64,000 nucleotides of DNA from Isurus oxyrinchus (Eukaryota): positions 7,502,001-7,566,000 of the forward strand of contig JANJGN010000035.1 of assembly GCA_026770705.1 (NCBI GenBank), read 5' to 3'. The notes under the pieces are model-generated. The model saw nothing but the letters and a program-made list of their open reading frames with translations, was not told the origin of the DNA and made no database searches. A program made the translations under genes and the position numbers. Of the stretch, positions 591 through 31,307 are shown piece by piece; position 1 is the stretch's first letter; each line of letters starts with the position of its first letter.

Positions 591-1041
591 ATAAGTTGCT
601 CTTGCTGACAGCCAGCTCGCCCCAGGCGGGCTAAATTGTAGTAGCCATTGTATGAGTTTTTGTTCCGATTTTCCTATGTTCGATTGAATCAACACACTTT
701 TACTGTCACCAGGTGAAGTTGCTTAGTTCCAGGAGATGCATTTGCCACAATTACCCTGGCAACAGCAAGAATGATTACTCAAGCATGTTCACTTTTTCCT
801 AAATTCCTACAAGCAGGAAAGAAATTATCGTTAACAGTTCAGTGCTTAGTAACTGATTGAACTAAGTGAATCATTGAATTATTTTGTAAAAGCCTAAAAT
901 AAATTAAATTCATTCTAAAATTGAAAAACTTAAATACAGTGATATCAGGCATCACTTGAATTCATTGCAGGCATTTCAATGTATATTTAGCAATTAATTT
1001 GGATCTTTTATATTTAAATTTCATGGCACATTCTAAGATAT

Positions 1042-2322
1042 TGTGATTAAATTAACCATTATTTATTAATCCATGATTTTAGGATGCATTTTGTTAAAAT
1101 GATAGCGAGTTAGGAAATATCTGTTTGACCTGAGGTTCAACATGCATTTAAGGATAATGAAAACTGAAGCTGAATCAGAACAAATGAAACCAATTCCAGC
1201 AACGGCGGAGCCAAATTTAGTTGACAGTAAACACTGCCCCGTTTTGTGTTTTATTTGTATGCTTGGGTGTCATAGCTATTTTCTCTTTCAGACGGTAGCA
1301 CACCTGCCACAATCGCCATCTCACTTTGCCCCGAGAAATTAACACTTCAGTAACTAAATGCCTCTTGTATTATGCTCTGACAAAATTCAGAACTCCAGAG
1401 GAATAGGAGAACAGAAGCCTAAAGATGACCTTCTAGAGAAAGGCAGGGCAGCAATATGGCAATCGGGCCTATAAAGTGAAGGTAAGAGTGCAGGGCAGAG
1501 GGAAAGGCACCAAGCTTCAGATTGACATAGTCAGAAGCTGTAAAAAGGATACTTACAGTGTTGACAGCTAGCAAGAGGGAACATGGTCCAAAGAGAAAAA
1601 TGATTGGCTGTAACTCTTTCTCATTGGCATCTGGAGCAATGCTGAACTGTTTGTGGATGGGTCAGATAGACAGAGTGCGTGGATGACACCTAGAATTCAT
1701 GTGGGGACTCAGGACAGAGGAGAATCAGATGGAGAGTTCAAAACCTGGAATTTGAATTCTAACAGAAGTATATGTGAGCATTCATTGTTAGGGAGAAATT
1801 TCGAAAGCAAGCTTTTGGAGAATGGAAATTTGAAACGCACATATGAAAGTCGGAGTTCAGTGAGACCTGTGGGTTCACGGTGCAACACGCGCACAGGTGT
1901 AGTTGTTCTAGGCTGGCGGTGGGGTGTAATTGAGGAAAGAAAATGATAGAATCCTTTGGAGATGGCATCTATCACTTGGTTTGGGAATATGCTGTTTCTG
2001 ACCATCCAGTGCTAATGGGTTTCATGGATTGTTTAATTGATGTACACATTAGAGTATAAGATAACTTTGTAAATTGGTTTATCCTTAAAAAATGTGAATA
2101 CACCTGCAGGTTATAGTCGTGGGTAAATGAATATTGTAACCAAGTTCATCGTTCCTTGTTACATAAATGTTTTATTCCTTTGTTAAACATCATCATATCG
2201 TCCCTATGTCTCTGTTCTGTAGTTATTCACTAAGAACCGAAAGAAACATACAAATAAATATTCGAAGCTATCAAGTTGGATTCAATGCTTTTCTTGGGGT
2301 AACCTTAGCTGAGATCAGAACA
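1042..2322 (+). repeat. 5' LTR of element 1 (left boundary uncertain)
   Basis: Ends gagatcagaaCA. Shares blocks with 5677-7004: ggagagttcaaaacctgga (1731 vs 6431), ggagtt(c/t)agtgagacc..gttcacgg (1854 vs 6541), ataaatgt(t/g)ttattc (2163 vs 6854). Confidence 0.7.
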
Positions 2323-5300
2323 AAGTGTTGTGCTGTTATGGGATTGGAAATATGGTCCGTGTTCGACTGAACATGGAACAATAATTGGCCTGGCACTGGA
2401 AATCATTGACAATGCTGGGATTTCTGTAAGATTTCAAAAGGTACATAGAGGTGAACAGTTACTGGTCATAAGAATTAGAGTTGCTGTGAGATATTTTGGA
2501 CGGTTTGAAATTCGAAATGGCGTTGGTGGTTGGTAAGACGTTTCTTCCTATGAAAAATCTAACTCTGAATGTTTTACAGAATTTAGTCAAGAGTACGCTC
2601 ATATAATTGGTGGATAATTTAGAGATAGAATTACCCGGAGGGAAGAGGAAACAGGCGTAGCACAGCATGTAATGCTGGAAAGGCTAACAGGGATACAACG
2701 TTTTCATTGAGCCGGTCACAGCTTCAGCTGGAGAGCCTTCAGTTACAAATGAAAAATTTTGACCTTGAAGGAGCAACGGGAATGAAAAAGGAAGCAAAGG
2801 ACTAGAAGCTGCAGGAAAATAAAGGGCTGAAGAAGTAAAAATGCCATTTAAAGGTAGCAAGCAGAAAGACAGGAGAAATTAAGGGAGCTGGAAGTGGAAC
2901 TCCAGGCAAGAGAGAAGGAAAAGGGAATTGAGGCAAGGGAAAGAGAGAAGGAAAGGAAAAATGCGTACCAGCTGGGAAGGCTCGAATTTCAGAAGAGATT
3001 TCATATTCTGTAAAAAGTTCTGATGATAAAAAAAGCATTTAAGCTGGTACTTCGAGGCGAGATGTTTAAGATTCTGCAAGCTGCCCTACGATTACAGGGG
3101 GAAAGGTGGATGCATTCTCTATTTCGCTGAAAACGTAGCCAGGGAAATGAAGTGGCAAAGATAAATGTGGGCATTCATTTTACAGAATAGGTTCGTACGT
3201 AGAGCTCATGACAGGACTATAAGGAAATAGCCTTGAGAGACCTATGTTGATTTGGAAAGACCAAAGCAAAGTGATGTTGACCGTTGGATAAGGATATTAA
3301 ATGCAAATACAAGGTAAATAATTCTCTGGGACGAATTTTAAGATACATTACCTCCAGTAGTTAGAGCACAAGTTGAACACAAGAACATTAGCAAGATTTC
3401 GTGGCAGCGGAGACAGCTGACGATTATGAAAAGGACCATTATTCAATACCTTTATTCCCACCTTCCCCGTGAACCCGTAAAAGTTAGAATATGGGAAGTG
3501 GAATAGAAGGGAAGTAGCCACAGAAGAGAAGGGACAACATGAAATTTGTAGGTAATTTTCCCTCAGGCTGGAAATGAATGCCATGAGGTTGGAAGTCTCA
3601 TCTAGAAGCCGATGTGTTATCATTCTGTCACACTGGGTCTTCTTAGGACAGATTGCTGGAGATTAAATGATAGACTTTTTTTCTTAGTAATAACGCCTAA
3701 GAAAGCCTCTGGAAAAAAGGCTATGGCAGAGAAATGAATTGTCTTTAAAACTGTAGAAGAAGATCAGGTGAATATTGTTTCCTCAGAACGTACAGGAAAG
3801 GGAGTTATGTTTCAGGGTATTCCAGTGAATACTCATTTGATTACTGGTGAAGAAGTCAGGGTATAAGAGTGCATGGATGTCTTTTTTTTTCCCAAAGTGT
3901 TGAATGTTCCATTACTCCTCCAGCAAAATAAGTAAACAGATAAAAATTCTGAGAGATTCTGATGCAGATCAAGCATTGACGGTGTTTGATGATACAATTA
4001 GTTCCCTGGATCATTATGTGAAGGGAAAAAATAAGACTAAGGTATTATTGGAATTTATGAACCTGTTTCTTTGCTTAAATTCGACTTACAAAGTTTCATT
4101 GTAAAATGAAATGTTACAGTGGGAATTGTTCCAAAATCAGCCGTGGAAGGGGCGGCTTTTATTCTGGGGAATGGGTTGGCTAGTGGAGATAACAATACTG
4201 TAATGACTGTTTTGCAGCAGGGGGTTGTTCATGTTGATCTAAACAACTACAAGAAGCTCCTGTGGCCAAAGACAAAACACTTATTGGCAATAACAGCCAA
4301 CTGAAGGAAAACCTCACTAAAGTAGAAAACCCAGGTGCGAAAGACGAATTTGCTAATTATGGTAAGGGATTGCTGGGAACAAATGAGAATAAGTCGCAGA
4401 AAGCAGAACAGCTGAGTGGGACGTAAAATGTCGAAATGATAAACTCGCAGAAACATATTTAACAAAATTCAATCTTCAGTTAAAACTTGATGAACTTCCT
4501 GCACCACTACTTGCCATCAAATATCATAAACATGCATTGAATATGTGAAAAAGAATGACAGTGAATCACAATAATTGGTTCAAAGCAGAAAAAAAGAATA
4601 AGTCTGTCCACCTGTTAGAACTTCGTCATGAAAGGAGTAATGAGATTTTCGATCTCCGATGCAAACTGGACGAAAGGGAAAATAGAATGTTTGATCTGCA
4701 TTGTCATAGGACCAAAACTATTTCTCTGAATAAAAACTATTTAATGAATTGTTGTCCAGTTGAGCAAGGAACTGACCTGTGTAACATCACTGTTGTATCA
4801 ACTTCGTCACGGACAATTTGAAAACAATTAAAGTGCAGAACGAATTGGAAATCTATAAAAACCAACAAAAAAAAAACTTAAATTGAAAAATGGCTTTTGA
4901 AAGTCAACGGCAAGAGAGACTGATTCATAGGTGCTTACGTTGCTAATACATGAAATAAACAGTTGGATTCCAGGGAATTGGACAGTTTGCAAATGTCCAT
5001 TCAATACCTGGAAAGAGGTGGACTGATACAATTTTTGCTATATAGAAAATATCTGAAGGCTGGAACTTCGCAGGGAGAACACAATTTAAACTTATTAAAA
5101 CAAGGGGAAAATGTCTATTCAAAATGGAATCGGAACAAGGTAACAATATCATACAATTCTGAAACATAAGACCAAACAGGAATATTAAATGCTACTACAT
5201 GAACACCACCATCTTAATAGCATCTTTGAAACGGCAAAAGGAGATTTTTAACAGAGAGGAATTTAGATGTTAGAGGAGAGATGTGCCATTTTAGTGCAGT

Positions 5301-5676
5301 ACGGATTGAAAAATCAGCTTGAACATCCGACAAATCAAAAAGACGATTGGGCTGTAGACTTATATGGAACACTTTTTTTTGTTGTGTTAAAGACTTGAAC
5401 TAACAGGAAAAAGGTAACATCAGGGTTCATTTATGATAATGCTATATTGTACAAATTATGTTAATCGAGTTGCATTTATTGACTTACGATAAGAAGAATT
5501 TTGTAATTGTGCGATATAACATGTCCAATTGCGAAACAAAATGGAAAGTTCATTTGTTAAATCAGTAACACAATACATTTTTAGAGCTTTATAACTTTAG
5601 GTTTGTGTAAGGTGGGTGTAAGGGCGTTGAAAATAAATCTTATCGGTGTGCAGCTTTCTTCCTCCATAGGGGAAGG

Positions 5677-7004
5677 TGATGGAAAGATAAATAATTTAAG
5701 TAAGTTATATTGGCATTTGCAGGTGTAAAACATAGTGCCAGCTTTAAAGTTTAACCTGGTTTGCATGTGTGTGTGTGTGTGTGTGTTGTGTTTGTGTGGT
5801 ATGAAAGTTCAGACTAAATTTTATTTATATTTTCAGATGCTTGATTGTAATCCTAATGAAGAGTTTTCCGACCCTGACGTGAAGGCCAACATAAGAGAGT
5901 AGAATAATTTAACTGCTGTTTAGCAACATGATGAGTCAGAGAGGCAGGTCCCTCCCACTGACAGAAACAGAGGAGGGAAACAACCGTTAGTTTTTGAAGC
6001 TGTATGAATTCAGTGAGTTTGAAAACAACTGTGAAGCAGAGGCAATGAACACGGAGACAGATAGCAAGACCCAAGCTGAGGAAAATCAAACAAACCCAGG
6101 TGTTAGGAAGAACAGACTGCGCAAAGATATACTTCTCGTCAAAGGAAGAACATAATTCTAGGAAAACAGTCCTGTGAAGTGAAGTTAAAAGTGTGAGGCA
6201 GATAGAAAGGCCCCATGCTTCAGATTCAAAGATACAAATCTGCAGAAAGCGGACTGAATTCGAGGACAGCTTGCAAGAGCCAAGAAGTTCCCAATTGACA
6301 ACTGAAGGGCTGTAATTCTTTCCTAAGGGCAAGTGAAGCATTGGTGTACTGTTATAGGCTGAGACAGAGAAAAATGGTGTGTGGAAGACAGCATGCATGC
6401 ATGTGGTGTCCCAGGGTAGAAGAACATCAGGGAGAGTTCAAAAACCTGGAGGTGAACCTTGTGAAAAAGCATTCGATTTGGGATAAGATTCTAAAGCGTT
6501 TTCTTGGAGAGTGGATAGTGGAACCCCATGGGTGAAAGATGGAGTTTAGTGAGACCCGTTTGTTCACGGCTTGACAACCGTCTCACAAAATAGTGTCGGG
6601 GATGGGCGACGTGAGAATGAGAGTTGTGGCGAGGTTAACAACACCCATTGGAGGGGGGAACTTTCTTTTGATTTCATTGTGGTTGTGTATGACTACAGGG
6701 CGCCATTTGTTTACGTGGAGTGTATAATTACTGTGTAGATTAGAATGAAAGATATCTTTTTAAACTTCCGTTATCCTGCCAAATCTAACTGCGTCTGTAA
6801 AAATGTAGTTATGATGAAAAAACATAGCAACATAGTTCATCTTTTCTTGTTGAATAAATGTGTTATTCTTGTGTGTAAAATTCATCAGCTGATCCGTTTC
6901 CCTCTGTTCAGAGGCTTAAAAAACATTTAACAGTTGTGAGCTATTAAGCCGCTGCATTCTGGGTTCAGGCATGTCCAGGCGTAATGTCAGCTGGGCTCAT
7001 AACA
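5677..7004 (+). repeat. 3' LTR of element 1
   Basis: Starts TG directly after the PPT and ends gggctcataaCA. Homologous blocks to the 5' LTR. Contains a (TG)n tract at about 5766-5800. Confidence 0.75.
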
Positions 7005-7233
7005 TTTGTTTCTTTTTGTTTGTTAATGGTATGAACAGAAAACAAAATGAACCCTGACCTCCAATAATAGGCACACGACTTAAAAGATTAACAAATTATA
7101 CAAACCATCAGTTCTGTTAACACCAAAAGTTTCATGCGATAGGAAAAGTTTCTGCAAAAAGCATACTCCCTATCATACAACATTGTTATTGCCGTTCTGC
7201 TTAGCTGTGCAGGTGTTTAAAGCAAATTATTCC

Positions 7234-7587
7234 CTTCATTGGCCGGGTTGTCACAGCGAAAATTTACAATCAACTGCAAACCGCCATGCAATTTTACTTC
7301 ATGCATGTCTTTAAAGTGTCTCCAGTGCCTAACGTGGTGTGAGAAAACACAGACAAAGCCACTGAACAGCGAAGTAAATGGGAATGTGTAACTATATAAT
7401 GAGCCTATCTCCTGTCTGAAACCTGAGTCATAACCTGCTGCGATTTCTTCCAAGTACCCACTGAATATCCTGCTGAATAATCTATTTGCCCTGGCATATA
7501 CGCACCATTTGTTCTTACAGGCAATCCTCACCTCAGACTCAACCTCTGATACAACTAGTTTCTTCGGTCTTGATGTTATGAACGGTC
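7234..7587 (-). pseudogene. Candidate ZP-N-like exon (354 nt, open frame, phase 1-1)
   Basis: Pyrimidine tract plus TAG acceptor at 7588-7590. 118 stop-free codons: ..SEVRIACKNKWCVYAR..LEEIAAGYDSGFRQEIGSLYSYTFPF..GLQLIVNFRCDNPANE. The putative donor reads GG instead of GT (GAAG|ggaata). Confidence 0.4.
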
Positions 7588-8090
7588 CTACATACGGATT
7601 TTTGAAGATAAGAAAAAGGGGCAGCAGTTGATCTTAAGATGCCTGGAGGATACTCTGCCACTGTATAATATCGCAGTTCATCTAGTCTGTCTATTGACAC
7701 AAATTTCATTTTTATTTCTCATGACGGAACCGTATGCCATAACGGATCAGTGTACAGATATAAGATATACAACCTGTACATTCTTAGAAATATCTAGCAA
7801 GACCTTTTACTATCTAATAGGTTCTGATGATGCATGCTTCATTCTTAGTAGCTTCATTTAATAAAGTGAACAGGTGTTGGGTGTTGATTATTAAAATTAT
7901 GCTCAGTTTTGTGCATACTGAATGGCATCAAAATGGAGGCAAGGAGGTTGGGTCTGTGCGATGGGGATTGTGTTTGATTTCAGAAATAAGATGTAAGAAG
8001 AAAACTCTCCGGTTAGCATTAGACAGGATCGTCTGATGAATCCTAGCATTAGTTACGTCTTCACAGAAAGGTTTGGTCATTGCTTTGACA

Positions 8091-8109
8091 TTACTGGCAG
8101 AAGATTGTT
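8091..8109 (+). promoter_or_regulatory. Degenerate tRNA-iMet primer binding site
   Basis: ttactggcagaagattgtt immediately after the LTR ..ttgaCA resembles TGGTAGCAGAGGATGGTT. Confidence 0.5.
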
Positions 8110-9276
8110 GTCTGAAAGTGAAGATTAAAGACTATGAATTGCTTGCAGAACGAAGGTTAGATTTGGAAAAACTTTAAAAAAGAATGCAATTAGAAAAGCA
8201 TTGATTAAGTACACGGAAACAGTCATAACCTGCAGTAAATTATATCCCACCACTGCTTTGCGAAAGGGAACATGATGGTCAATCGACAAATAAAGCCAAT
8301 TGATAAATACAGGCTAGGTTTCTACCAAAATGAAATCTAGGGATGTTCTTTTGCTCCCTGCTAGGAGTAAGATCAGCCACAAAGTGTTGTCTAAAGTAAA
8401 CATGCAGTAACTGTGTGCTATAGAAGCTTTGGGCATTCTTTTAAAATCCAATAACACAATTTAATGGAAAGTTAATTTACTGAATCACCATGAGGCTCCT
8501 TCGGACTTCGATACATTTAGGAAAACATGATTGACTTTTCCAAAGAGGAAGGTATCACGGGACGCCACCGACCCTATAGTGGATTGCATTAATTCCACTT
8601 GGACATTGCTAAGTCAGAAACTTCATTTAAATAAAAGGGCTGTCTAGGAAATCGAACAGGGATAGGCTCTTGGTTTTTACCGGATTTTGAGTTATCCAAA
8701 GCAGTGCCTTTGGATGAAATGTCCGAAGCCTTAAAAATAATGCTCTGGATAAGCATGCATTTATGCCGCTTGTATGGCACACATGGTGTATTCAGCATTG
8801 ATTGTAAAGAGTAAGGATACAGTGCTATAATGAAGCACAATACAATTACAGGCAAATAAGGCAACAAGAGTAGATAAACCTGCAGAGCGACAACAGGCTG
8901 TGGGATTTGGGCAATTATGAAAGAATCAGAGACCCCAAGGATAACCAAATTGTGGTTAACAAGCTCTTGAGATGGGACCCTAAGTATCATTATGCTTTGT
9001 TTTGTCCAGAATAGAAAAAAAAAACGTATCGTTTGAGATAGAACATAATGTGGAAGACCCATAAGGTTATGAAGACGTTTCTGACTACTCAGAAGAAATC
9101 GTCTTGTTCAGCAGAAGCTTCAGTCCGGTAGTTATTATCTCAGTCCCAGATTCACTCAATAGCACAGTTCCAGATATTTAGTACAGTCCCACGATATGTG
9201 GAGTGGACTAGCTAATCTGTTACACAGTTTGTTTTAGTATGCATGACCGAAGGAAAATAAAGTAATATCACAGCTC

Positions 9277-10570
9277 AAAACACAAACAGAAATACCTGGA
9301 TGCGGACGCTGGTGGGGTGATAAGTGAGGACAAGGGGGACCCTATCATGTTTCTGGGAGGGAGGAGAAGTTGTGAGGGCAGATGCGCGGGAGTTGGGCTG
9401 GACACGGTTGAGGGCCCTGTCAACGACCGCCTTCTCCTTCCTCCCAGAAACATGATAGGGTCCCCCGTGTCCTCACCTATTACCCCACCAGCCTCCGCAT
9501 TCAAAGTATCATCCTCTGCCATTTCTGCCAACTCCAGCATGATGCCAACACCAAACACAGCTTCCCTTCTCCCCCTGTATCAGCATTCCATAGGGATCGC
9601 TCCCTCCGGGACACCCTGGTCAACTCATCCATCACCCACTACTCCTCAACCCCCTCCTATGGCACCACACCATGCCCACGCAAGAGATGCAACACCTGCC
9701 CTTCACTTGCTCACTCGTCCAAGGACCCAAACACTCGTTTCAAGTGAAGCAGCATTTTACTTGCATTTCCCCCAACTTAGTCTACTGCATTCGTTGCTCC
9801 CAATGTGGTCTCCTCTACATTGGAGAGACCAAACGTAAACTGGGCGACCGCTTTGCTGAACACCTGCGGTCTGTCCGCAAGAATGACCCAAACCTCTCTG
9901 TCGCTTGCCAATTTAACACTCCACCCTGCTCTCTTGCCCACATGTCTGTCCTTGGCTTGCTGCATTGTTCCAGTGAAGCCCAATGCAAACTGCAGGAACA
10001 ACACCTAATCTTCCGACTAGGCACCTTACAGCCTTCCGGACTGAATATTGAATTCAACAACTTTAGGTCGTGAGCTCCCTCCCCCATCCCCACCCCCTTT
10101 CTGTTTCCCCCTTCCTATTTTTCCCAATGAATTATAAAGATTTTCCTTTTCCCATCTATTTCCATTATATAAAAAAACCCACTAGAGCTATACCTTGAGT
10201 GCCCTACCATCCATTCTTAATTAGCGCATTTGTTTAGATAATATCACCAACTTTAACGTTAACACCTATGTGTTCTATTGTACTGTTCTTGTTGACATCT
10301 TTTGATGATCTGCTTCTATCACTGCTTGTTTGTCCATACAACCACACCCCCCACCTCTCTCTCTCTCTATCTCTCCGCCACCCAGACACACACATTAAAC
10401 CAGCTTATATTTCAACTCTTTCTTGGACTCGAACTCAAGTTCTGTCGAAGGGTCATGACGACTCGAAACGTCAACTCTTTTCTTCTCCGCCGATGCTGCC
10501 AGACCTGCTGAGTTTTTCCAGGTAATTCTGTTTGTGTTTTGGATTTTCAGCGTCTGCAGTTTTTTTTTAT
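9277..10570 (+). mobile_element. Young 5'-truncated Penelope-like element with GIY-YIG endonuclease, inverted 5' part and 15-bp TSD
   Basis: ORF 9672-10073 NLVYCIRCSQCGLLYIGETKRKLGDRFAEHLRSV, with PCPRKRCNTCP upstream in another frame. TSD gtaatat(c/g)acagctc at 9262-9276 and 10571-10585. Confidence 0.95.
10438..10476 (+). ncRNA. Minimal type I hammerhead ribozyme motif (variant core) in the Penelope tail
   Basis: agtt-CUGUCGA-a-gggtc(atgac)gactc-GAAA-CG-UC-aact. Stem I is agtt/aact, stem II is gggtc/gactc, stem III is the palindrome ACGU. The core has U at the normally invariant A6. Confidence 0.7.
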
Positions 10571-12530
10571 GTAATATGACAGCTCTTCGTGCTAAATTGC
10601 TTGCCTTTGGAAATCTGAACATTTGCACTTTAAGCAGTCGGGGCAATATTTCAATCCATGACGTCATGTCAACTCCAGGCGGAATGCCAAAACGATATTA
10701 ATGGCAGCTTGGTGAGGGGTTTCCAGAGCAACAAACAAATTATATCAAAAAACATATTGACGATTTGCACGTCGCTCCGGAAATAAGTTGAAGATCTTTT
10801 TAAATGATGCATCGATATTGGATATAGAAAGCAGTAGACCTGTCAAGGACATTTGTGAATAAATGTGATATTTGTAAAAGGTACAGGTCAAAGCCATCAC
10901 AACCCAGAGGAAGTTTTCCATAGGGAGATATTTTAATGGGATTATAGAGATGGAAACCATAACATGGGATCAAATAAAACAACAAGATTTAGACTGACAA
11001 CGTTACCCTGTATCAACGACCATTTTTTTAAAAAGTGCATCTTAAGAGAATAGAAATATGGGTAAGAAGAGCCAGTAACTAGCTAAATTATTTATGAAAA
11101 AATGAAGGAACTTTGCCATTGATCAATTCAGCGGTACATGAGAAATTCGGAATATTGTAAAAATGCATACAGCAACAGAATATCTTTAGGCAATGGATTA
11201 CGTGAGAGAAATAATGTTGTCCAACCAAATTGTAAATTGCAACATGTCTAACCTGGGCATTACAGGTTATACCACATTCCTGGCAGTTACGGGCTAATGC
11301 CCTTATCAATTATTATGCAGCAGGAATCCAAAGAAACCACAAATATTGTGGGAGCAACCAGCGGGTTTGGAAGGGAGTAGAAATTGTTGCATTTTTAGAG
11401 AATGTCTGGATGTCTTCCAAGTAGGGAGGGTAATATTTATTGAAGCAGAGGTTTCAGTGAAAAATATTTGGAGAGACTTGAAGCATCGAATTAGATCGTC
11501 AGGAATGTATTTCAAGCCCGGGGAAATGGTGAATTGTAAATGAGAAGAACAGAAAGAATGGCGAGTTCCAGGAAATCTTGTGGGAAATTATAGCAAAGCA
11601 GTAATCTTGTAAAATGATTACCAGTGGTTAGACCGCATTCCCTGCTGCTTACTGACACTGCTAACACATTGACAGTGGCCCAACAGATGTTGCAAAGTGA
11701 CGATGCACCTTGAATTTAACATACATATATGTTGGAAGTTTACTGACAGCAGGTTCTGTCAAATTAGGGACTAACAAGGAGCCAAACAAATCCTAGTGAA
11801 CATCAATATGGGGCTATTCAACACAAAGGTCGAATACTAAATGTTGAAACGGGTGGCATATATGCCATAAGTGGCCAGTGAATCTAACAAAGCTAGTACG
11901 CTAGGAAGGTCAAGGCAGGACTGAGAAAAATAGAAAAAAACTGAATTTGCAAGGTAAGGGAGAGAATATACGTTCTTTTGGTTGACAGCAGGAAGTAAAC
12001 ATCCATAAAGCAAGGAAGCTTCGGTTAAGTTCTGACAGTGTTCCAAAATGTGATGACCTCCCAAGGAAAATAACAAAAAGTTTTGAAAGGAAGTCTAGTC
12101 GCAGGATGCGCAGGTCCGCTAGTAGTAGACCAGACTGGGAGAGGAAATTTCCTGTGGACGAATTTTAACAATATCAGCGCCAAATAGCAGGTGAGCAGCG
12201 ACATGACACCCTACGATAGAGCAGCTGTAGTGATGACAAAGAAATTAGATGGTTCATGGGTGACGGAGGCAAAACAAAAATAACTTGACAGTGAGCAGTG
12301 CGTTTGGAGTTTTCACAACGGTTCCAAAAAAAAGCAAGTAAAGCATTATCCCAGCGATGGATATAGATGGAGAATTATTTTTTCCTCGTGGCTGACTTGA
12401 AGCATGGAGATTGATGGAACAATTGGTCGACAAGACATAGGCGTGATCCACAACAGCAGGAAAACGTACGTTTGAGCATTTCCTTAGCATTTTTTTAGCG
12501 TCATGCTCCAGGGAATGTAAATCCATTTGG

Positions 12531-13265
12531 TAGAGTTTAATATTCTCCCGCGAGGCCTTGCTGGCGGTTTGAACATAGAATTTGCTGAATGGGCTTCTAG
12601 ACTGATTGACATTGGCGCCAAACTCTCTGCAATTTTACACTCAGATTGGTGAGACCAGTCCTCTTTTTGCCACAGCTATGACCATTACGTCATTGACAAC
12701 TTAACGGGCGGCAAGCCCAGACTAAATTTTCAGCACGCAGGAGGCTTTGGGTGATGTTGGCAGTCTGTAAACGAGCCCTGTTCAGACCTCGGGCACGGTA
12801 GTGGAGTGGTTTCAGCCACCATTAAAGATTGGGCACNNNNNNNNNNNNNNNNNNNNNNNNNNNNNNNNNNNNNNNNNNNNNNNNNNNNNNNNNNNNNNNN
12901 NNNNNNNNNNNNNNNNNNNNNNNNNNNNNNNNNNNNNNNNNNNNNNNNNNNNNNNNNNNNNNNNNNNNNNNNNNNNNNNNNNNNNNNNNNATGGTTTTGG
13001 CCCGCCCTGGCCTGCTGAATATCTCTCTGCAAGAGATCAGCCCATCTCCCCAGGCCTCAGCTACCCGCTGGACCCTGTGACCATCAGAATAAACTGCTTT
13101 ATTGACGCCCAGGACTGAGGATCTTGGGGCTGCCTGCACCCCGGGGCCTGTCCAAATAAATTTAGATCGTTGTCGGGACTTTAGATCGTTGTTGGCAATT
13201 TCATTGACCAGTGTCTCTCCAAAGCAGGAATTTCTCCCGAGTGAGAGGCGGAATTTCCGCCTAAA
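12531..13265. mobile_element. GC-rich non-autonomous DNA-transposon-like insert spanning the assembly gap
   Basis: Abrupt GC rise that truncates the Copia RT. Ends ..ggcggaatttccgcc. Similar in character to 44922-45592. Confidence 0.4.
12837..12990. other. Assembly gap (154 N)
   Basis: Run of N characters. Confidence 1.
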
Positions 13266-14010: not shown

Positions 14011-14189
14011 TTACCTTATAAACCCACCGCAACCCGAACCGCAACCACCCTCCACCTCTCCCCCACCACCGTCACCACAGCTCAAACTCCCTTGATATAT
14101 GTTGGGCAAAACTAGGCGCAATAGTTAGTTGAAAGCAAAGGAAAGTGACATTTTCTAGTTTAAGTCTTCATGTCAAAACATTCCAAATT

Positions 14190-14672
14190 ACTCGAGGACA
14201 TCAACAATCACTTCAATGATAATTCAGGACCCTCCATACAAAATAATATAAGTGGCAGTTCCTGTCATTCTTCAGTTAATTTCCTCCGGAATAATTTTAG
14301 GTGACGGCGTTCAGTTCAATATTGTTTTGAATAATGTCGCTTTCTTCGAAACAGGTCCACTCCAAGATTCCCAACAATCCAAAGAACTGTCTGCTGGAAG
14401 ATTCTTGCCTTTACTTGGTGGTAATGAACGTGCCAAAAAGTTACATATCGGCCAATGTAAATGACAGCTTGACAACTTTGGTCTGAGAAGTACGTGACAC
14501 ATTGTTTTCAGCAGGAACAATTGTTAATAAGGATCGGTTAATATCGAAAAATCAAATACCGGGCAATCTGTGGAAGAGGCGTCAATTGGAAATGGGAGTT
14601 TACTGTATGCATAACACAGGACATTGAGCCAAAATTAAGCAACGTGTATTTTGTTTCCCATGTGTTTCTTTC
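14190..14672 (-). pseudogene. Candidate decayed exon, weakly ZP-N-like
   Basis: Acceptor tatttcag at 14673-14680. Phase-1 reading NKIHVA*FWLNVLCYAYSKLPF parallels SEVRIACKNKWCVYARANRLF of the 7234-7587 segment. Contains stops and frameshifts; the 3' end is uncertain. Confidence 0.25.
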
Positions 14673-15654: not shown

Positions 15655-15676
15655 ACAAGGGGCTCGCTCGGGAAAT
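15655..15676 (+). promoter_or_regulatory. Degenerate tRNA-Pro primer binding site
   Basis: acaaggggctcgctcgggaaat resembles TGGGGGCTCGTCCGGGAT and directly follows the LTR. Confidence 0.7.
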
Positions 15677-18600: not shown

Positions 18601-20691
18601 TTGAACGATTTTATGCGAAGCAGGGAACAGGACAAATGAAAAAGATTCAGGAGAAATTAAGGGGCAAACATTCTTCTGTGGTACATATCAAATATGAGGG
18701 TAAGATTGAACAGGACATGTGAGTTGGTGAGGGAAGATTAAAATATATCACAGCTAGTGATGAAAGTGAAAGAAGATAAGATGGCTAAAATTTGCAGTTA
18801 TGTTTTTGGAGTGAAAGTATTAGATATGATACCGATCCTAGGTGATTCCTTAAATGCAAAATTTAGCAGGCCTTATAGGTTTGAAAATATAATGACTGAC
18901 GTAAATTATTTAATAAATGTTCAAGAAAGAAGATATCAGAAGGATTGTTGTGCAAATATGTTTGAAAATCACTTTGACGGGGAGAGAAACAAAAACATTT
19001 GTTAATATGCTGAATGATGATAAAGATTTAGCTGTGCAGCACTGGGAAGTTTAGTTTCATCGAATCAAATTGAAGAAGTAAAGGGTGTTTGAAAATGTAA
19101 ATGCAATAATGTCTTACCTTCCAAGCAAATATCAACGTGATTTGGAAAATCGATTGAGGTCACACAAACGTTTTTGCGGGAATAAATTTGGAAATAAGCA
19201 CTAATCTTGACATGATGGATGTATGGAAATGTCACCTTCAGTAATACAGCAACGCTATAGATTAAATTCATCAAAGTAATCACAAGCACAAAAAATAAAT
19301 TGATTTCATGCTTGAAAATGGCATTATTAAGTTTACTTACTGTAACTGGAGTTCGCCTATTTTAGTGCTACTAAACCACATGGAACACAAATACTGTGTT
19401 TGTACTTTCGAAAGGTGAATGGGGTGATATAAGAGGTTTAATATGCCATACCACGGTTTTCGAATTGTATGGTTAATGTTAGGCAATCCAAATTTATCAA
19501 GAAGATTCACTTGCTTGTAGGATATTGGCAGGTAACAATGTCGGAGAAGGCAAAGGACATATCAGCTTTCGTAACGTCAAGTTGACTGGATGAGTTTAAA
19601 GTCATCTTCTTTGACATGAAGAATGCACCTGTGACATTTCAAGGATCGACAAACAAAGTAATTGCGGGTCAAAGCAATTGTGCTGTTTATACTGATGATC
19701 TAATTGTTTTCAGTCAGATGTGGGAGAAGCATTTACAGAATCTGGAAGAATTATTCACTCGACTACAAGAAGTTAATTTGGTGATGAACTAGGCTAAAAG
19801 TGATATACCTAAAGCACAAGTATTTTATCTTGACCATACATTAAACATGGTAAGGTCGGTGTGAGAAATGTGAAAATGCAGGCGGTCGTGGATTTCCCCA
19901 TGCCTACAACCAAACGAGAAGTTTTAAGAGTTCTGGGCTTGAGTGGGTTTTACAGGAAATTTGTACGAAATTTTAGCCAGGTGGTTGCACTTCTGACCGA
20001 ATTATGAAAAAATAACTAGAAGTTTCAATGGACACGGCAGTTTCAGAAATAATTTGATAGATTGAAAGCTGTATTAACTGCGATATCGATTTTAACAGTA
20101 CTCAGTTATGCAAAGCAATTCAGGTTCGCCATTGACACCAGCGATAAAGGCACAGGGGCTAAACTGTTGCAAGTATATTGCTTTTGGAATGGAAAACAGA
20201 TAGGAAGCTAAATCTAGAGCAGGGAATATATTTAACGATCGACAAAGAGGCTTTGGGCTTGATGTTAGAACTGCAGTACATCGGGGCTTATGTTGCAAAA
20301 AATTAATCAGAAACAATTATTCATGCAGGCTATAATCCTTTGAAGTTTTTGGACACATTTCCTGACAACAGACCAAGGGTTCTCAGGTTGTGTCTATTAT
20401 TACACCTATTTAATCTGCGTACTTTACATGTTATTCGAAGAGGAAATCTGCTCGCAGATGGTTTAGCAAGAGTTTGAATCTTAAAGGGAATTGGGTCATT
20501 TAGAAAAAGCTGGACACTGAACTGGAGAGATTTCCCTTGACAGAAAGGTTTTGTGGATAAACATTGTTATTTTAGTACATGCACAGTGTGATGTAATCGA
20601 GTACTGAGTTTAGAAGGTAGTGAGAGATGGTCAATTAAAATAATGCCATCTTTGCAAGATATAATGGTTCAATTTCAGATAAGGAAGGACA

Positions 20692-21439
20692 TTTCAAGCC
20701 GCTTTTAATGTGCATAATATCTTTGGAAATATTTTCCTTTACAAATGAATGTTTAGTCTTTGGGTGTGTCTTAATTGGATTAAATTCACCTAGCCTGGGT
20801 GCTTTGATGGCTACTCATGTTGAAATGTAGGCTTGGATTTCCATTTTGTGGAAGAGAGCATTCATGAAGTGTATCCGAAACTTTCACCTTGCCTGCAGGT
20901 ACAAAGCAATATATTTATATTAATAATCACAAAGTGTGCTATGAAAGGGGTTTTAATTTTAGAGAGGTTTAGTTCAGAGACGATGAGAAATACCATTCAG
21001 TGGGGCTGGTGATATAACTTCAGTATTATTCGGGTAAGCAGAGCAGAGGCAATGTGAGATGAAAAGGCAGCTGCAAGTCTCCAATTGGCTCCACAGGAAT
21101 TAAGTGATCAGAACATCATTTTGAATTTGTAAGGTGAAAACGCTTTGCCTCGTGTTTGGTACAATATGTCTTGTTGCCTTAATGGATATTTGTTTGGGAA
21201 GTTGTTAGGAGTAACGAAAGTAGTAATTTGTAGTCACGTGTATGTATACTTAACCTGTGTAAATTAACAAAATGTTTAATGTTGTTCAATGTAAATCCCG
21301 AGAAGTGGAGGCCTGATTCCTAAATTCCTACAGTTGCATGTTAATCATAACACTTGAAATGATTGTAAAAGGCAGTTGTTTAAACTTTCCCTCGGATTTT
21401 TTAAGTAACTCCGCTTTACGAATTGCATCGGTCATAACA
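20692..21439 (+). repeat. 3' LTR of the Gmr1-like element
   Basis: Follows the purine tract aaggaagga (20681-20689), ends ggtcataaCA, and is collinear with the 5' LTR. Confidence 0.88.
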
Positions 21440-22630
21440 GTGAGAGGGAAAGTGAAAGAATCTGTGAACGCACTTTCATTCGGGGACTGATGCAGAGCAT
21501 TTTTTAAAAACATTTGCATTTGCAAAGCAACGATTCTACTATTGTCACACTGTATACGTTATAAGAAGAAAAACAATAAAATTTTTGATTGTTAGGCTAA
21601 TCATTATACGTCTCCGAGGTCAAATTTCATAAATTGAATTTAAAATTGTAGCAGTATCGTTCCAGTACGAGCAAGCAGACATGTTCATTCCATGGATATT
21701 AGCAATAGATTGTAAATGGAGAGGGAAACAAATATTTAGCAATACAACATGATTAAAGTACATTAATTAACAATAATCTAGGATTGATCCTATTCACCAA
21801 TAAAGCACAAAGTGTAGATAGTGAAAAACCAACAGCCAATGGCTAGTTTTCAGTATGCCCAGAACACCATTCCAATTATTTGGATAAGCAGTGCCACGAT
21901 AAATAAATAAATTGTTGCTTGTCTCATTAGGGGAAGAGAACGTACGCTAAAAGCTACGAGAACGTGACAATTTATAAAGTATCAAATAGAAAGCATTATT
22001 TAAATAAATAATATTCTTTGACATAATAAAAGTTACGATAACGACCACAATAATAAAAAGAAGAAAAACTGTTTAGAGGATGATTATATGATATTATGGT
22101 AAACTATACTTTTTTATTTTATTCATAAGCGTTCTGTTAGAGTCACAAAAACGTGCACAACATGTTCAAGGTATTAATAATTAAATCGTGAATATGTCGA
22201 TAAATACTTCCTCTTGCTTTCTGATTCAGCAAGGGGAATATTGACATGGGGATAATAGGTAATTAATGAATAAGACTGTACGAAAACATTTAAAAGAATA
22301 AGAGGGAGCTAAAGTACAAAATGTTCATAGCCCCCAAAACCCTGCTTTGTATTGATTGTATATACTAAATGCCCACAGCAAGTACATTATTCTTCCGTAC
22401 CGGCTCAAGTGCTCGTAGGAGGGCGATAAAACCTTTGCAAAAGCCCTTCCATCAAATCTACTTTAATTAAAATATAGTATTCCTGTTTTACCCCAAATAT
22501 GTAAATCCAAATTAAAATGGCACAGGGTAAATTATAGGTATCAATGACTTCAAAAGGGATGGTATTGCTTTACAAACTTAATCAAGTTCCTCGAACAAAT
22601 AATACGAAATGAGTGTTTTTCCTAATGTAC

Positions 22631-22966
22631 CGCCACAACCTTGCTAAAATTTGATAAAATGGAATTGCATCCGAACTTTATACTGAGACCTCGAACATTC
22701 GGTTCAATACAAATTTATATTATTGATTCTCCAAACGCCCTTTCTCAATTTTAATTATCTTGAACATAGAATCTAATCTTTTGTTCATTTCCCACATTTG
22801 CAATAAACCAGCTATCATTTAAATGCAACGCTGCCAATTGCCTTAAAGCACAATGTTGCTGCAAGTTCACCATTCTCACCACGAAAAAAAAACCTTCAAA
22901 ATTCACTGTAGAATGTAATGGCAATTTTGTCATCTTTGTGACCTCGAGTGTCGACCTTACTCTGAG
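22631..22966 (-). pseudogene. Candidate decayed ZP-N-like exon (336 nt)
   Basis: Bounded by tttccag| and |gtacat. Reads QSKVDTRGHKDDKIAITF..[frameshift]..LRQLAALHLNDSWFIANVGNEQKIRF..GESII*ICIE..GLSIKFGC, which aligns by eye with the 7234-7587 segment. Confidence 0.35.
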
Positions 22967-23239: not shown

Positions 23240-23780
23240 AAATAATGCCAAGGGAAAGGAAAAAAACAGCATCAAATGTAAATTGGCACGCAGATATTGG
23301 TATTGAACTAGGGAGGTTAGAGATGAGGTTTGTCTGGATGTTGGCGGCACTAGGAAGTTGAAGTGAAATGGACAAATCGCATAGGTGGTTAATTATCCTT
23401 TGAGCCGAGGGCAAAGAAGCGGATTTGACTGAAATGTACAAAATTGTGAGGTATGTGGATTGAACGGGGGGAATGGAATATTTACTTAAGCAGATACTAT
23501 GGGACGCTAATGTAAAGTGATTGGTAGAAGGATGAGAAGGGAGGCAAAAACGTTTTTGTTTAACAAAGAGTGTTGTAGGTATCATGAACTTACTGTCTGT
23601 GATAATAGTAGGAACAGCCAAACTTAACTCATTTAAGCTGTTTTCTGGATATGCACCTGAAGAGAATCAAGGTGCCAATTGTCTACAACACAGCTATATA
23701 TCTCGGATTTTCAATCAATGGGCAACAACGTTCATGCCCAGTGCTAGCAGAATGGACCTTTACGTTCTTAAGCAGGCGAT
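23240..23780 (+). mobile_element. CR1 LINE 3' end
   Basis: gcggatttgactgaaatgtacaaaattgtgagg (GDL.E.YKI motif) followed by a CR1-type 3' tail. Confidence 0.7.
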
Positions 23781-24681
23781 GCCTTTGCTGAAATTCACTG
23801 GCTGAGTGCTTAGCACTTGTGATTATCTTTCTATCCTCCTACAGGCAATGGATCTGAGTGAGTGTTGGAATTGAGATGCAGTGCGAGGAAAAAATATTGA
23901 ATGGATATCCCTGTTGACCTTCCACAATATTTTAAATTTTGTTGACTAATTTTGTTAATACTTCCAATTCACACCATTACACAATGGCGTGAACGGTAGC
24001 TGAGCTGCCAATTGTCAACCTGAAGTCCAACAGTTATTCGACTCTGGCCTCGTTTATACGAGCCAGGGCAAGGCGTTGAAGCTTCGCAGGCCATTGCTCG
24101 TAACAGTTGCATGTCAAAGAGAGCGAGTGCAAAACTAGAAATTGTCGTGGAAGAAGCGGTAACAGGATATTGATGAAAATCACAAGTTGTACTTGAGATT
24201 ATCCAATAATAGCGCTAATCCCATGATTAGTACAGGGAAAACCGGATTGGGAGGTTCATATATATAATCGGTATTAGTGACCAACAATTGCCCCTCGTTT
24301 CAATGCGGCCCTCGGAGTAGAAACCCTAAAGCTCTTGTTCCTTAATGTTCGTAATCATTTCTTTAAATTTTCGCCTGGTGATTATTGTCCCTTTCAGAAG
24401 CGCTGACTAGACTAATAATGTACACACGAACCTTAGGTTTCACAGGCAGTTTACTTGTGAAAGCCATGTTTGATCTCGAATTGAGTTCATACATTTGAAT
24501 GTGGCCCGCAGTAGATAGAGCAGTTTATGTTTAGTGTTATATCGATAAACAGTTTGAGGCAATTTAAAATCTATGGCAGAGTGAGATGAAATTGGAAATG
24601 CAGATTGATGTTCACTGGATTAAGGTTAAACATTGTTTCCTATGTCAATCAAAAAGCAAACAGTAAACCCATCTGATGTAC

Positions 24682-25144
24682 CTGCACTTCTGGCAATTTC
24701 GCTGGTTCTGTCTTCTTTAAATGGTGAATGGCAGTCTTCATTCACCGTGTTTGTGCTGTTGTTGCCATTGGAATTATTTGTGCTGTACAGAAATGGTGTT
24801 GGAATACCTTCCTCTGGGTAAATATTTGTTCGGTACTGTTGAGGCTGTCATGGCAGTCATTTCGGGATATTTCAGTTTTCAATTCGCTGCTGGCGGGATC
24901 TCTCTGTTCATGATTTGTGCTGAGAATTCTAATGGTGTTCCCAAGTGTCGTGCTGGTCCTATCCGTTCCCCCGTGAGGATTCTGCTTGCTGAACTATCCC
25001 AACTACATTTGTTTTCGAAACAAAGTTCATGGATTTTGCAAGATTTCTTATAATTGAGCAATATTTTGGTGGCCTAATCGTTTATACATTTAATCACTAA
25101 TATCAGCAGACATGGCGTTTGCAATTCTCATTTAATTTCAATTG
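24682..25144 (-). pseudogene. Candidate decayed ZP-N exon
   Basis: Strong acceptor atttttttctctttag| and donor cag|gtacat. A single phase-1 frame gives IEIK*E..LLILVIK..KILLNYKKSC..RHLGTPLEF..GRYSNTISV..RLPFT with several stops. Confidence 0.5.
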
Positions 25145-25429
25145 CTAAAGAGAAAAAAATAGAATCATAAGCGTTTTGATTTTTTCTGCAATTCCAGATC
25201 CCACACGTGAATGTTCACCCTTGATGTTTGCGCATGGAGAAGCATTTTGCTCTGAAATAAGGATCATGTTAAGCAAATTTTCTGTTCGACGACTATATCC
25301 GATCACAAGAGATGTAACTGGATAATATCATTTTAATAAATATTTCAATCGCCTTATATGCTGCTTGTATTCCTGTTCGTATGAATAAGCATGGATAAGC
25401 ATTTTGTTAGACAAATCATTTTAAATTGA

Positions 25430-26520: not shown

Positions 26521-27627
26521 TTTGCAGCTCAATGCGCACTCATCAAGCAGGATAATTAGGCAGGTCAATGCAAGCTTAAACCTCAGTGAAAGTGTATAAA
26601 TGAATTCCCCGCCTCTCCCTAGTGGAATTTCAGGCAGCGCTGGGAATTGGGTGGGCGAGGTTGGGGGCGGCGGGGGGAGTGGTTGGGCTTGAAATTGAAG
26701 GAAGCATGTTCCTCCTGGCTTCCCAACCGCACCGAAGGAGCAGCAATTTCACTTCAAAGCAGGAAACGCATCAGGACAACTACTGGTGAGATAAGGAATT
26801 TTAAGTTGGCGGGATGATTAACCTGACATGGGTAAAGCACTAAAATGTGCAGGCTTCAAAATCGGATGCGAAGTGGGTGTCACCTCTCTCAGTTATCCCT
26901 CCCTGATTTATGCTACACCCCCACACCCCCCTCTGGCTTCTGAGTGTTTGTAGAATTCCAGTTCATGAATTTAACCTGAAATGGATGTTAATACATGTAA
27001 GCTGTCTATAAAGGAATCAACTGTAACATAGCTGAAATTTGATGTGACAGCGATGTCTACTGGTAGGAAATGGAACTGTTCTGTAGGAATGCAATTATGA
27101 TCAATCTCTCAGTACAAAGGTGAATGAAGCTTTAAGGAACATTGTTGGTAATTTGTTCACTTATGAATCATTACGAATTGAAGGGATTACAAGTCTTTGA
27201 CTGTTAAATGGCAGTTCGTTTTCAAAGAAAAAATGATGCCCATCGATTGAATCACTATTTAATATGTTCTTTTTTGGCAACCTAAATATTACATGCATTT
27301 ACTCAATCTTATCATTACACAGTATTTTTCCTCAGACCGAATATATATCATCAATCTGTATGATAAGAGAATTAACATGTTTTAACAATATAACCATCTA
27401 AATACATCGACAGAAAACTGATAAAAGCATAACCACAAATTACGGATATATGTAGAATATTTCAGTTGGCACATGATTAACATTGAAGACGCAATTATAC
27501 TTGCTAATATATATTCTCGTTATCCTTTTCCCCTAACTCGACCAGCAAATTCTATTGAGACAACCCATCCCCTCCTCCTTCAACTTCACGTTTCATGGTT
27601 TACTCTTGCTGAATGGGAAATGGTTAC

Positions 27628-28350
27628 CTGTGCATGGATGGTAGGGCTTCACTGAAGAATTACAGTCTTTCTGTCATGGGACAATGATTAGAGTTATAAT
27701 ATAATTATGTCATTCCCGTCTCTTCGCCTAGAGTGTCTGAAATTGTTTCTGTTTTTTTCAAGCGCAACCATTTTAGTTGGATCAGCAAATTTCTACACAA
27801 TGGCTATACCCCGCATTATTAAAAATATATTTTCTAAGAATGTTGATGGCTCATTCCAGTTCAATGTACAATTAATGTCAAAGTTACACTTTTCGTGCTA
27901 ATCATTTATTTATCATTTCTGACCATAACGTTCCTACATATATTGGAGTGATAACTGACACTAAAATATAACTGACGTCCATAAATAGGAATTTCAGCAC
28001 AAACAGTTGAAGAATATCTATTCCATCTTTATTATTCACTCTGGTACCAGCAATTATCAAATGGCCCAAGAAATTCATCTCAAATTATGTTCCCGCAAGG
28101 CTTCTTAGTTAACCACTTTAGTGACAAATTCGCAGACGTATTATTGGCACTAGAATGCATTACATTGATAATTGCTGGTGACAATGCACTTTCAATTGAA
28201 CTGAGGTCATTCCAACACAATGTTACGTAAGCATCTGATTAATCACTCCAATAATAAGCACTTCTTACATTCCAAAAACATTTAACTTTTTCCTTAGTAA
28301 ACAAAGGTGGGTTTACATGACCGATAAGGTCAAAATGATGCTTAAAGTTA
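27628..28350 (-). pseudogene. Candidate decayed exon(s), ZP-N-like
   Basis: One frame reads EKVKCF..SDAYVTLCW..LSLKWLTKKPCGNII*DEFLGPFDNCWYQ..RYSSTV. Consensus donor cag|gtaacc at 27627; acceptor not located. Confidence 0.3.
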
Positions 28351-31240
28351 ATTTAAAGAGTGGTGTCGCATTTGACATTTCCAACAGACAGTTAAAGATT
28401 TGATTTAAACGACAGTTAAATGAACAGTTCAGCCTTAATAAAGCCTTAAAGTGTAACATGTGGAGGGTTAGTGGATTGTTCCGAGGGGGCGGGGGTTGGG
28501 ATGGTTGGGGTAGAGTGTGGGGGCCGTTCGTGGCTAGGAGTGTTGGTGGGGCATTGTATATTTAGCTGAAAATTCAGACCTTTAGAATCTGCGTTGCCTC
28601 AGCTCGTAAGAGGATGTTCATTAAATGAATTTCACGCTCAACTATGACGTCTAGTTATTGTGGTGACGATAACTTTCAATAAAACAGTGATTTGTTTGAA
28701 TGTTCACAGCTGCGTTGGCATTCCATCCATTTGCCATGCAGCCAAACGACCCAACTTAAATATCACATACCTTAAAATCCCGGGACTATGGCTGCATTTT
28801 TTGCGATTGACAGCAGGTCCCCGAGAAGCCTTCAACATCATGTCCCAAACCGGTGACATCAGCATGCTTGATGACAGGGGGGTACAGCTGCATTGTAACG
28901 CAAACTGCTCCAGCTACCGTTCAAGGCAAGTGCATCCCGATTTCGAAATTTAAAGTCTTTACTGCATTAAGATTGATTAAGATTCCTAAACCACCCCTCA
29001 TAAAATCGCTGTATGGTTACTTTACCATTGGGCGAGTATTGTTCATTAATTCTAGTAGATTTAGAAATGAATGATAGAGGATGGGCATATGTTTTTGAAC
29101 CTGTTTTCATTCAAGCCCCTGTTTCAAATATCCATAATGTTCCGAGGAACAAAAAAGTACTTTCTCTAACGGGTGCGGTTATATATGAGATGCGATACAA
29201 ACCATGTGCAATCGTTGGAAAACAAATGTCATAGATTAGTCATGACAGGATTAAGGCTGGAGAGGAAATTTAAACATTTATTTGAATAACTTTTCAATTA
29301 GAATTTTAATCAATCAGATTATCATCCTGTGTTAATTGAGATGTCAATGGCAGAAACCATTCTCAGCTACAACCTGTCACAAGTAAAAGAGAAAACAAAC
29401 TTTCAGAGAGACCACGCATTGACTCAATCTCATATGTTGGAATTCGCAGGCTTTGATATTGAAAATTGGGTACCTAATCAGAATTGAAGGGCTCCATCAA
29501 CCCAAAGGCTGATGTAGAACTGTTTGAAAAGTGTAATGGATCAAATGTATGTGTGTGTGCGGGCTTTGTGTTCTTGTGTCTGTGTGTGTGTGATGAGGGG
29601 GGGTGGGGGGTGGGGCAGGGTGGTGGGGTTGAGAGGAGGCGGGGGCTGCAAATACGGACATTGGGTAGCTACAAGTTCAAATGCTACGTTTTTGGTTGTG
29701 GCAGGTGTCACACAATATTAGTAGTAAACAGAGTGGGAATATAGCATTGTCCGACAATATATATTAAAGTTCAATAAAATCTGTTTCGTTTGTTGCTAGG
29801 GAAGCAAAACATATTAATAAAGTGATGGCGATTTAAAACAAAGACGAACAATTGTTTACTTTTATCAATGTGAAATGTCTCATAAATGGAAATTTTAGAC
29901 GGAGATATTTCCAGTATGTTATTTATTGAGCAATTAGCATCATTCAAGCTCGGGGTAATACATGTGTCTGTTATGAATGTGGAGGAAAATAATGAATTAG
30001 AAGAGAGGGGATCAAAAGATACATCAAGGCACACGGAGGAAATATTGAAATAAACAGGGAAATTCAGAATCGCTATAGGTAGAACTAAGAGGCTGTTAAT
30101 GAGGTTAGAGTGTAATTTACATGCCAGGATTAAAACGGTATTCTGCATTTTCGGATGGGACAAGGGCAATGACGACTACGGGAGAAATGCAGTAAATGGC
30201 ATTTTGGTATGTAAACAACAGTCTTGAAGGCTAATTTCTCGGGTGTTAGGGTAGGCAACAGATTTCAAGGAAGATCGTTCATTGGTCAAAATGTAAGAAA
30301 AGATTTGGAGAAAGCACCTTGGCTTGCATTACGTGGGGGAACATCGGCACAACTCGAACAAATTATTGAATTGCAAATTAAATACTTAACATATGACAGG
30401 GTGACGGCATTAAATTAATATGAAATGCAGAAGGTGGTAAAACATAAGCAACCGTGCTACCTTTTTAGGCACATAATGTTTTGTCTGAGTTGGCTTGCAG
30501 GATTGAATCAGGTTAGGCCACGCTAGACGAAAGAACTGTCATGAATTAGGTGATTGCCACTCAAATAGAATTAAAGTTTAAAGCTTGGTTGGTGAAACTA
30601 ACTCTCTGTTATACTCTGAGTTGACGACATTTTCAAGTAGAATTTCACATTGTTTAAGCAGTAGGCGAAATGTCGGCAGTTTGCAATAGTGGTTATATGG
30701 GAAAATCAAATCGACCACTTGTCAAACGTTGCTAACGATTTCCTTTTTCTGCCATAAATGGGGATCACTAAATGAGATACTTATCAAATATATCATTTTT
30801 ACGGCAGCATAAATTGTGAACATTGCGTTCAGTAGATCAGTATAAATACAAAGCAGAGTAAATAAAATTATTAAAACGATTTTGGAGCAAGAAAATTCAA
30901 TTTGCTCCTTTTAGGTTTCTGCTCACCTTACAAAAAGTTATTGTTCGTTTTGCTGTAGCATTTCCTTTTGCCCTTTTCGTTTTCTCGCACAAATGCAGAA
31001 TGTTATTTGTTAGTTTGCATTTATGAAAGAATGCTATCAATATTATCAGGAAGGTCCAAGTATATTGTGCCGAATGAGGGAGTGGTTGACTGGAAGTATA
31101 TCCATCTGTGTTTAACAAATGCTAATCAAGGTTTACGTGAGTAATGAGAATCTAATCCTAGTTTCACTGATGTAAATTCCTGAAATTTCTGAATAGGGTG
31201 GTATTTTATTGCGTCCTGTTTGCAAAAAAGCCCCCCAAAT

Positions 31241-31300: not shown

Positions 31301-31307
<7 letters not shown>

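Follow-up and report, generated by a model that had tools for sequence, protein, structure and literature searches.

Introduction

In the whale shark, an NLRP-related expansion of cartilaginous fish has been described and linked by the authors to rapid birth-death evolution, according to the part of the report that deals with this family (PMC8455134). In zebrafish, too, NLR genes form a large clustered family rich in duplicates (10.1101/027151). Free ZP-N domains are said to share little beyond four cysteines and to have been found only in egg-coat proteins (PMC9154058). Here, we analyze 64,000 nucleotides (nt) of the Isurus oxyrinchus genome (GCA_026770705.1), corresponding to positions 7502001-7566000 of contig JANJGN010000035.1 (C35), hereafter the window. 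A first-pass annotation of its left half had proposed that eight minus-strand segments (31118-30927, 28985-28771, about 28350-27628, 25144-24682, 22966-22631, 14672-14190, 7587-7234, and possibly one from 806) are exons of one decayed gene for a secreted or membrane-bound protein built of ZP-N repeats.

Our sequence comparisons, with own-genome searches covering 4.98 Gb, indicate that the window, which lies in an NLR cluster, probably holds the decayed 5' half of a minus-strand NLR gene, a pseudogene that would make no protein. The hidden multi-exon minus-strand gene with old repeats in its introns has been borne out, with identifiable exons of the NLR family. Given the cluster and the broken NLR front end, the proposed ZP-N protein is most likely absent. 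As in zebrafish, to the extent that the source describes its clusters (10.1101/027151), the shark cluster is a large family with many duplicates.

Results

Decayed exons of a probable NLR gene in the window

The segment 25144-24682 lies within the decayed first coding exon of an NLR gene (24673..25150, minus strand), which comprises some 200 nt of likely untranslated sequence followed by about 85 codons of a linker rich in Ser, Thr, Glu, and Asn. It matches exons at C35:7.034, 6.461, and 9.728 Mb, and a first-exon model built without the window or its sister duplicate recovers the window at E 1e-24 but gives no match to its reversed sequence. All three older paralogs have an ATG at the column of window positions 24936-24934, where window and sister have none. 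The homologous donor is 24673|24672, 9 nt beyond the end first drawn at 24682; it reads AT in the window and GT both in the sister and in an intact-looking gene at C35:9.73-9.71 Mb. The window exon also has a 7-nt deletion. In the intact-looking gene, the homologous exon (C35:9728428) is open, 259 nt long, in phase 1, and likewise rich in Ser, Thr, Glu, and Asn, and is followed in compatible phases by exons 1 and 2 of a two-exon N-terminal module and by an open NACHT exon. An older paralog at 7.02-7.06 Mb keeps the same order of upstream block, first coding exon, module exons 1 and 2, and NACHT.

The segment 31118-30927 is contained in a promoter- or first-exon-like block of NLR genes (30824..31228, minus strand) with five copies in the cluster, all of which align a GT donor at 30927|30926. 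The 5' part of this block stands 2 kb before the 9.728-Mb first coding exon (E 7e-11), and a model made without window or sister finds the window at E 2e-35, with no match on the reversed window. No third-position excess is seen in the block, which would have had a noncoding role as promoter or untranslated first exon.

At the protein level, both module exons are conserved from one NLR gene to another. A remnant of module exon 2 occupies the expected place at C35:7497543, 4.5 kb left of the window (E 4e-19). Module exon 1 has left a decayed copy with stops in all frames at 33236..33412 (minus strand), detected with a DNA profile of 15 module exons 1, none from the window (E 5e-7; no match on the reversed window). 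The sister block has its own remnant at C35:6602860-6602751 (E 0.027). Given its position ahead of the remaining parts, 33236..33412 could come from a preceding gene or module.

NACHT exons are plentiful in the surroundings. Eleven NACHT loci on both strands lie within C35:6.34-7.77 Mb (1.4 Mb) around the window, and PF05729 was confirmed at C35:6.80, 6.56, and 9.71 Mb. Genome wide, the search returned 115 NACHT matches from 131 scored candidates, many on C35 and others on many small contigs. The DNA between the window and its sister block carries a 617-codon NACHT frame. A reading with no gene at all was rejected on the strength of the NACHT frames and the cluster. Zebrafish NLR genes reportedly carry FISNA and often B30.2; scans of three shark NACHT exons gave no FISNA match, although no search was aimed at FISNA or B30.2.

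C35:6.34-8.08 Mb is a mosaic of old segmental duplications (72-82%) with at least 11 NACHT exons, open and broken, on both strands. At C35:6729391-6800779, a single open NACHT exon is preceded by three consecutive two-exon modules. Partial copies of the linker-type exon follow NACHT exons on the same strand at C35:7472530-7472306, 7481308-7481143, 6548882-6548655, 6898376-6886374, 7075457, and 7110654.

A sister block that kept its NACHT exon

Window positions 592 to ~59800, together with much of the flanks, are collinear with a sister block at C35:6.47-6.71 Mb. Identity between the two is flat, at 81.3% over 43,956 columns, and ranges from 74 to 86% in the segments, where third positions show no consistent excess. 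The sister has, downstream of the segments, a minus-strand NACHT exon (C35:6559138-6557414) that is open for 575 codons and matches PF05729 at E 3e-30. The alignment of the window copy reaches both flanks of this exon, and 113 nt replace 7.2 kb at a deletion site ~15.5 kb left of the window. The lesions shown for the window copy are the loss of the start codon and donor and the deletion of the NACHT exon.

The sister first exon (in the copy at C35:6557414-6600833) is open for 107 codons (322 nt) from an upstream ATG, and its donor is intact and matches the NACHT acceptor of this copy in phase. Module exon 2 is decayed in this copy, and no module exon 1 stands between first exon and NACHT. No selection was seen on the sister first exon, with 8 synonymous versus 38 nonsynonymous codon differences, and four relative-rate tests gave p values of 0.07-0.74.

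Points that weigh against an NLR pseudogene

Some results do not favor the NLR assignment. No LRR exons were recovered by pattern or tblastx, even behind open NACHT exons. The 9.728-Mb exon alone gives no window match, the three paralogs together being needed, and its protein has no relative by tblastn. The place where module exon 1 is expected, between 24673 and module exon 2, yielded no trace of it, and its sole remnant is upstream and out of order. The two-exon module may be a CARD/death fold, a label that Pfam and PDB sequences did not confirm for single exons; PF00619 had no match on C35. No segment has a clear third-position excess. Among 30 low-copy tiles, only seven have an older paralog; five of these seven overlap the proposed segments, as do ~14 of the 30, and older paralogy is not significantly enriched on the segments. 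Finally, four segments lack a homolog beyond the sister block, so that "intron" is a default assignment for them.

Some of the same data would suit segments that were never used by a gene here, that is, neutral DNA from older duplications in which the NLR matches are leftover patches. Identity is flat, there is no codon signal, and older paralogy extends to two minus-strand low-copy blocks that had not been listed as segments. The first, 27081..27461, intronic or untranslated, recurs with its order kept in the older NLR paralog at C35:7.03 Mb; the other, 23665..23900, intronic, has a counterpart in the older paralog of the NLR family at C35:6.95 Mb and is collinear with the block around 7587-7234. 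However, the match at 25150-24673 is exon sized, with its ATG aligned in all three paralogs and its donor at one column, its homolog in an intact-looking gene is open and in phase 1, and both module exons are conserved as proteins across genes. Neutral origin is improbable against this record.

Segments without an assigned exon

The remaining segments are probably not exons. By BLAST, none of the eight has any masked sequence, which agrees with their description as lying between repeats. A DNA profile nevertheless identified 28985-28771 as the antisense of a dispersed-repeat remnant, likely the 3' part of a long interspersed element (28750..29060, approximate bounds, plus strand). This profile has 14 further matches, eight of them on loci of other contigs, and one copy sits 180-480 nt behind an RVT_1 match on the same strand. 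Mapping to multicopy repeats, which the first-pass annotation had named as grounds for refutation, is thus seen for 28985-28771.

Segment 7587-7234 is part of a low-copy block (7215..7746, minus strand) with an open 117-codon frame in the window. An older paralog at C35:6945644-6946165 (E 3e-38) is 20 kb upstream of another NACHT exon, between the upstream blocks and module exon 1 of that NLR. Seven indels separate this paralog from the window, none a multiple of 3, identity by codon position is 0.70/0.57/0.62, and the match runs 160 nt past the acceptor. The block is likely intronic and not under coding constraint.

Four further minus-strand segments are likely intron: 27628..28350, which is low copy with several sister-shared stops, and 22631..22966, 14190..14672, and 592..806, which have no homolog beyond the sister block. 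Apart from the sister, these four have no copy in the 1.4 Mb examined or upstream of five further NACHT exons. In own-genome protein searches with five of the eight segments (7587, 28350, 22966, 25144, and 14672), only the window and the sister block were matched. Pfam on plus-strand frames of window 23600-33500 found nothing significant, and an Rfam search returned no matches. The idea that all segments are exons is not supported: two are NLR parts by homology, one is a repeat, 7587-7234 is likely intronic, and four have no homolog beyond the sister.

We also weighed whether 28350, 22966, 14672, 7587, and 806 might be extra exons, the former unknown N-terminal domain array of this NLR lineage. 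They are on the gene strand, in the interval from the first coding exon to module exon 2 or immediately ahead of the former, and 7587 keeps the same relative place in an older paralog. Yet none of the seven indels of that older copy keeps frame, four of the five segments have sister-shared stops, and no copy is found upstream of the five further NACHT exons examined. Such an array is improbable.

The signals that had suggested coding exons do not exceed chance. Six of the eight segments do begin after YAG and five stop before GT, at chance-level rates; the minus strand has 5.6 good acceptors and 2.6 good donors per kb, and the strongest donors in 22.6-31.8 kb are not commoner on the minus strand (three versus five on the plus strand). 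The reported phase-1 open segments are exemplified by 7587, which starts in phase 1 within a 138-codon open frame, also at chance level. Frames of at least 138 codons number six in positions 1-31300, most in repeats, against 0-3 in a Markov null. Preservation of reading frames in both copies does not hold either. Sister-shared stops interrupt six of the eight segments, and only two of eight are spanned by a frame without them, where ~2 are expected from random same-length intervals. The other six segments, if they ever were exons, would have been broken before the duplication.

Tests of ZP-N identity

Some resemblances favor the proposal of an extracellular ZP-N-repeat gene, long dead and lying within or across the NLR cluster. 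By eye, 7587-7234 and 22966-22631 look cysteine spaced and strand-like, and 7587 is open over its 117 codons with no sister-shared stop. A loose motif (YAG, phase 1, a V-x-V-x-C-like start, and an F-x-C-like end 65-110 codons further) is equally frequent on both strands of window 1-31300, with 45 occurrences on each. In 25144-24682, the ZP-like reading begins before the column at which the paralogs have their start codon, and it runs in a different frame. The cysteine-bearing frame is not kept, with 7587 losing it at all seven indels and the paralogs of 25144 using another.

Profile searches, whose failure had been set beforehand as a ground for rejection, gave no ZP-N match by Pfam, our own profiles, or hhalign. 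Pfam reported no ZP family at E ≤ 1 in 22 frames. A modular ZP-N hidden Markov model (HMM) built from nine genuine own-genome ZP-N domains scored the segments at -0.7 to 3.9 bits; held-out ZP-N domains decayed by 10-20% scored a median of 11-47 bits, and those decayed by 25% scored 5-15 bits. In a frameshift-aware scan with seven ZP-N profiles, three of 56 tests reached p ≤ 0.05, which is chance level. Two of these concern 7587, whose empirical p values against three of the seven profiles are 0.047, 0.015, and 0.088. Segments compared with ZP-N by hhalign reached at most 1.9% (null maximum, 4.1% of 150). Segments compared with each other reached at most 3.2%, bar one pair overlapping in DNA, in a test with low power for repeat resemblance. 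Five shark ZPAX domain profiles also gave no match, a weak test in that genuine free domains miss modular ZP-N as well. These genuine free ZPAX domains attain only 1.6% and 0.2% HH probability against modular ZP-N, so that profile tests, being weak for divergent free ZP-N, leave a slight residual probability to a divergent family of this kind.

Remote-homolog and structure searches covered 7587, one of the eight segments. It had no match at E ≤ 0.001 among 1.84 billion protein representatives, though a sister protein database does contain shark ZPAX. No homologs appeared among 93 candidates of a longer search or 26 of a near search, two ESM Atlas runs gave no usable match (recognition score, 1154), and PDB sequences yielded chance matches only. 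AlphaFold2 on a two-sequence alignment returned a pLDDT of 35, which is uninformative on a beta-sandwich.

The genomic context is no more favorable. Of 54 ZP-N matches and four DUF4556 matches in the genome, none is on C35, and the same holds for the 95 PF00100 (ZP-C) matches (112 candidates) of a nonexhaustive search. Introns divide the genuine ZP-N domains of this genome; 47 of the 54 Pfam hits do not extend past position 68 of 101, ZPAX free domains map in blocks of 33-75 codons, and genuine domains span two or three short exons. The one exon per ZP-N domain that the first-pass model requires is unlike these genes. The best relatives of a ZPAX exon from this genome are those of sharks and rays (74-87% identity). 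Two ZPAX-like genes are at 14.73-14.77 Mb of contig C6, C15 has a DUF4556 (CIROZ-type) gene at 125.72 Mb that is duplicated on C263, and ZP-module genes form large tandem arrays on C29, C3, and C12.

With Pfam, HMM, frameshift-aware, and hhalign results negative or at chance level, 7587 unmatched among known proteins, no ZP-N, ZP-C, or DUF4556 match on C35, genuine domains split by introns, and two segments accounted for as NLR parts and one as a repeat, a ZP-N gene is highly improbable and largely refuted, and neither the ZP-N repeats nor a secreted or membrane-bound product is supported by exons that belong to the NLR (NACHT) family.

Repeats and coverage

Old repeats occupy much of the DNA between the segments. 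An element with long direct repeats (1388..6911, plus strand) is present in both duplicate blocks; its repeats, at ~1404-2106 and 5940-6911, are 66-68% alike. An old multicopy element (7804..12830, plus strand) is interrupted at ~9277-10570 by a younger repeat that is truncated in the window and absent from the sister site. Old multicopy repeat DNA also fills 14937..22610 (plus strand). The single N run of the window is at 12837-12990.

The repeat at 9277-10570 belongs to a family of young retroelements, which we take to be Penelope-like; other members at C35:6545252-6548029 and 6670612-6672708 are 90-97% alike with long open frames. At C35:6476000-6515000, ~7 tandem copies of a 5.8-kb unit show flat conservation. 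In this unit are found the 5' part of the linker-type exon and remnants that we presume to be reverse transcriptase-like. A low-copy block at window 34358-34800 recurs as two older copies (C35:7.021 and 7.024 Mb), in opposite orientation to the NLR parts of that locus. A degenerate 36-bp minisatellite, 6-8 kb left of the window and also present in the sister block, was considered as a mucin exon and ruled out by stops in all frames.

In an own-species DNA run, summed contig depth outside repeats at window 21400-31300 was 2-5x single copy, and there may be more copies than the assembly shows. DNA runs of a second organism cover 30 of 30 bins. One presumed-RNA run covers five of 30 bins, with short pieces at repeats only, and is uninformative on expression.

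Discussion

The window is best explained by the turnover of NLR genes. Repeated segmental duplication in a birth-and-death cluster would have made the NLR copy, which would then have lost module exon 1, its start codon, its donor, and its NACHT exon, in any order, and drifted since. Old repeats would fill its introns, the other five nonrepeat segments would be intron DNA with a ZP-N look arising by chance, and the pseudogene would make no protein. This adds one more pseudogene to an expanded shark NLR family, as in ordinary gene turnover, and a false lead toward a novel protein of the ZP-N type is set aside.

A more speculative and rather unlikely reading of the duplicate pair is that it records a shark NLR shedding its signaling module, with the sister perhaps a live module-less decoy or brake NLR. 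The sister first exon is open, with an in-phase donor but without a sign of selection, and a live module-less NLR is thus possible, though unproven. On the same reading, the Ser/Thr/Glu-rich linker exon of the family could itself have been multiplied before and behind NACHT exons. A sister expressed without the module would offer a natural way to test decoy NLRs.

Comparison with known systems separates the window from egg-coat genes and brings it close to NLR expansions. The segments share with the free ZP-N arrays of ZPAX and ZP2, and with CIROZ/C1orf127, a loose cysteine and hydrophobic pattern by eye and nothing more. Unlike ZPAX, ZP2, and CIROZ, they have no profile match and no ZP-C nearby; true ZPAX is on C6 and DUF4556 on C15, and the domains of these proteins are split over short exons. 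Neither this locus nor a shark array made of ZP-N alone was the subject of any paper in literature searches, and the supplements of the whale shark report may list NLR models (PMC8455134). The 5' layout of an upstream block, a linker exon, a two-exon module, and NACHT, on a contig rich in copies, offers a map for NLR turnover. Unlike the whale shark expansion, as outlined in the part of the report devoted to it, the window copy is without its NACHT exon (PMC8455134). The likeness to that lineage-expanded set of NACHT genes (PMC8455134), which implies no clade placement, is that many NACHT exons, some open and others broken, stand here on one contig.

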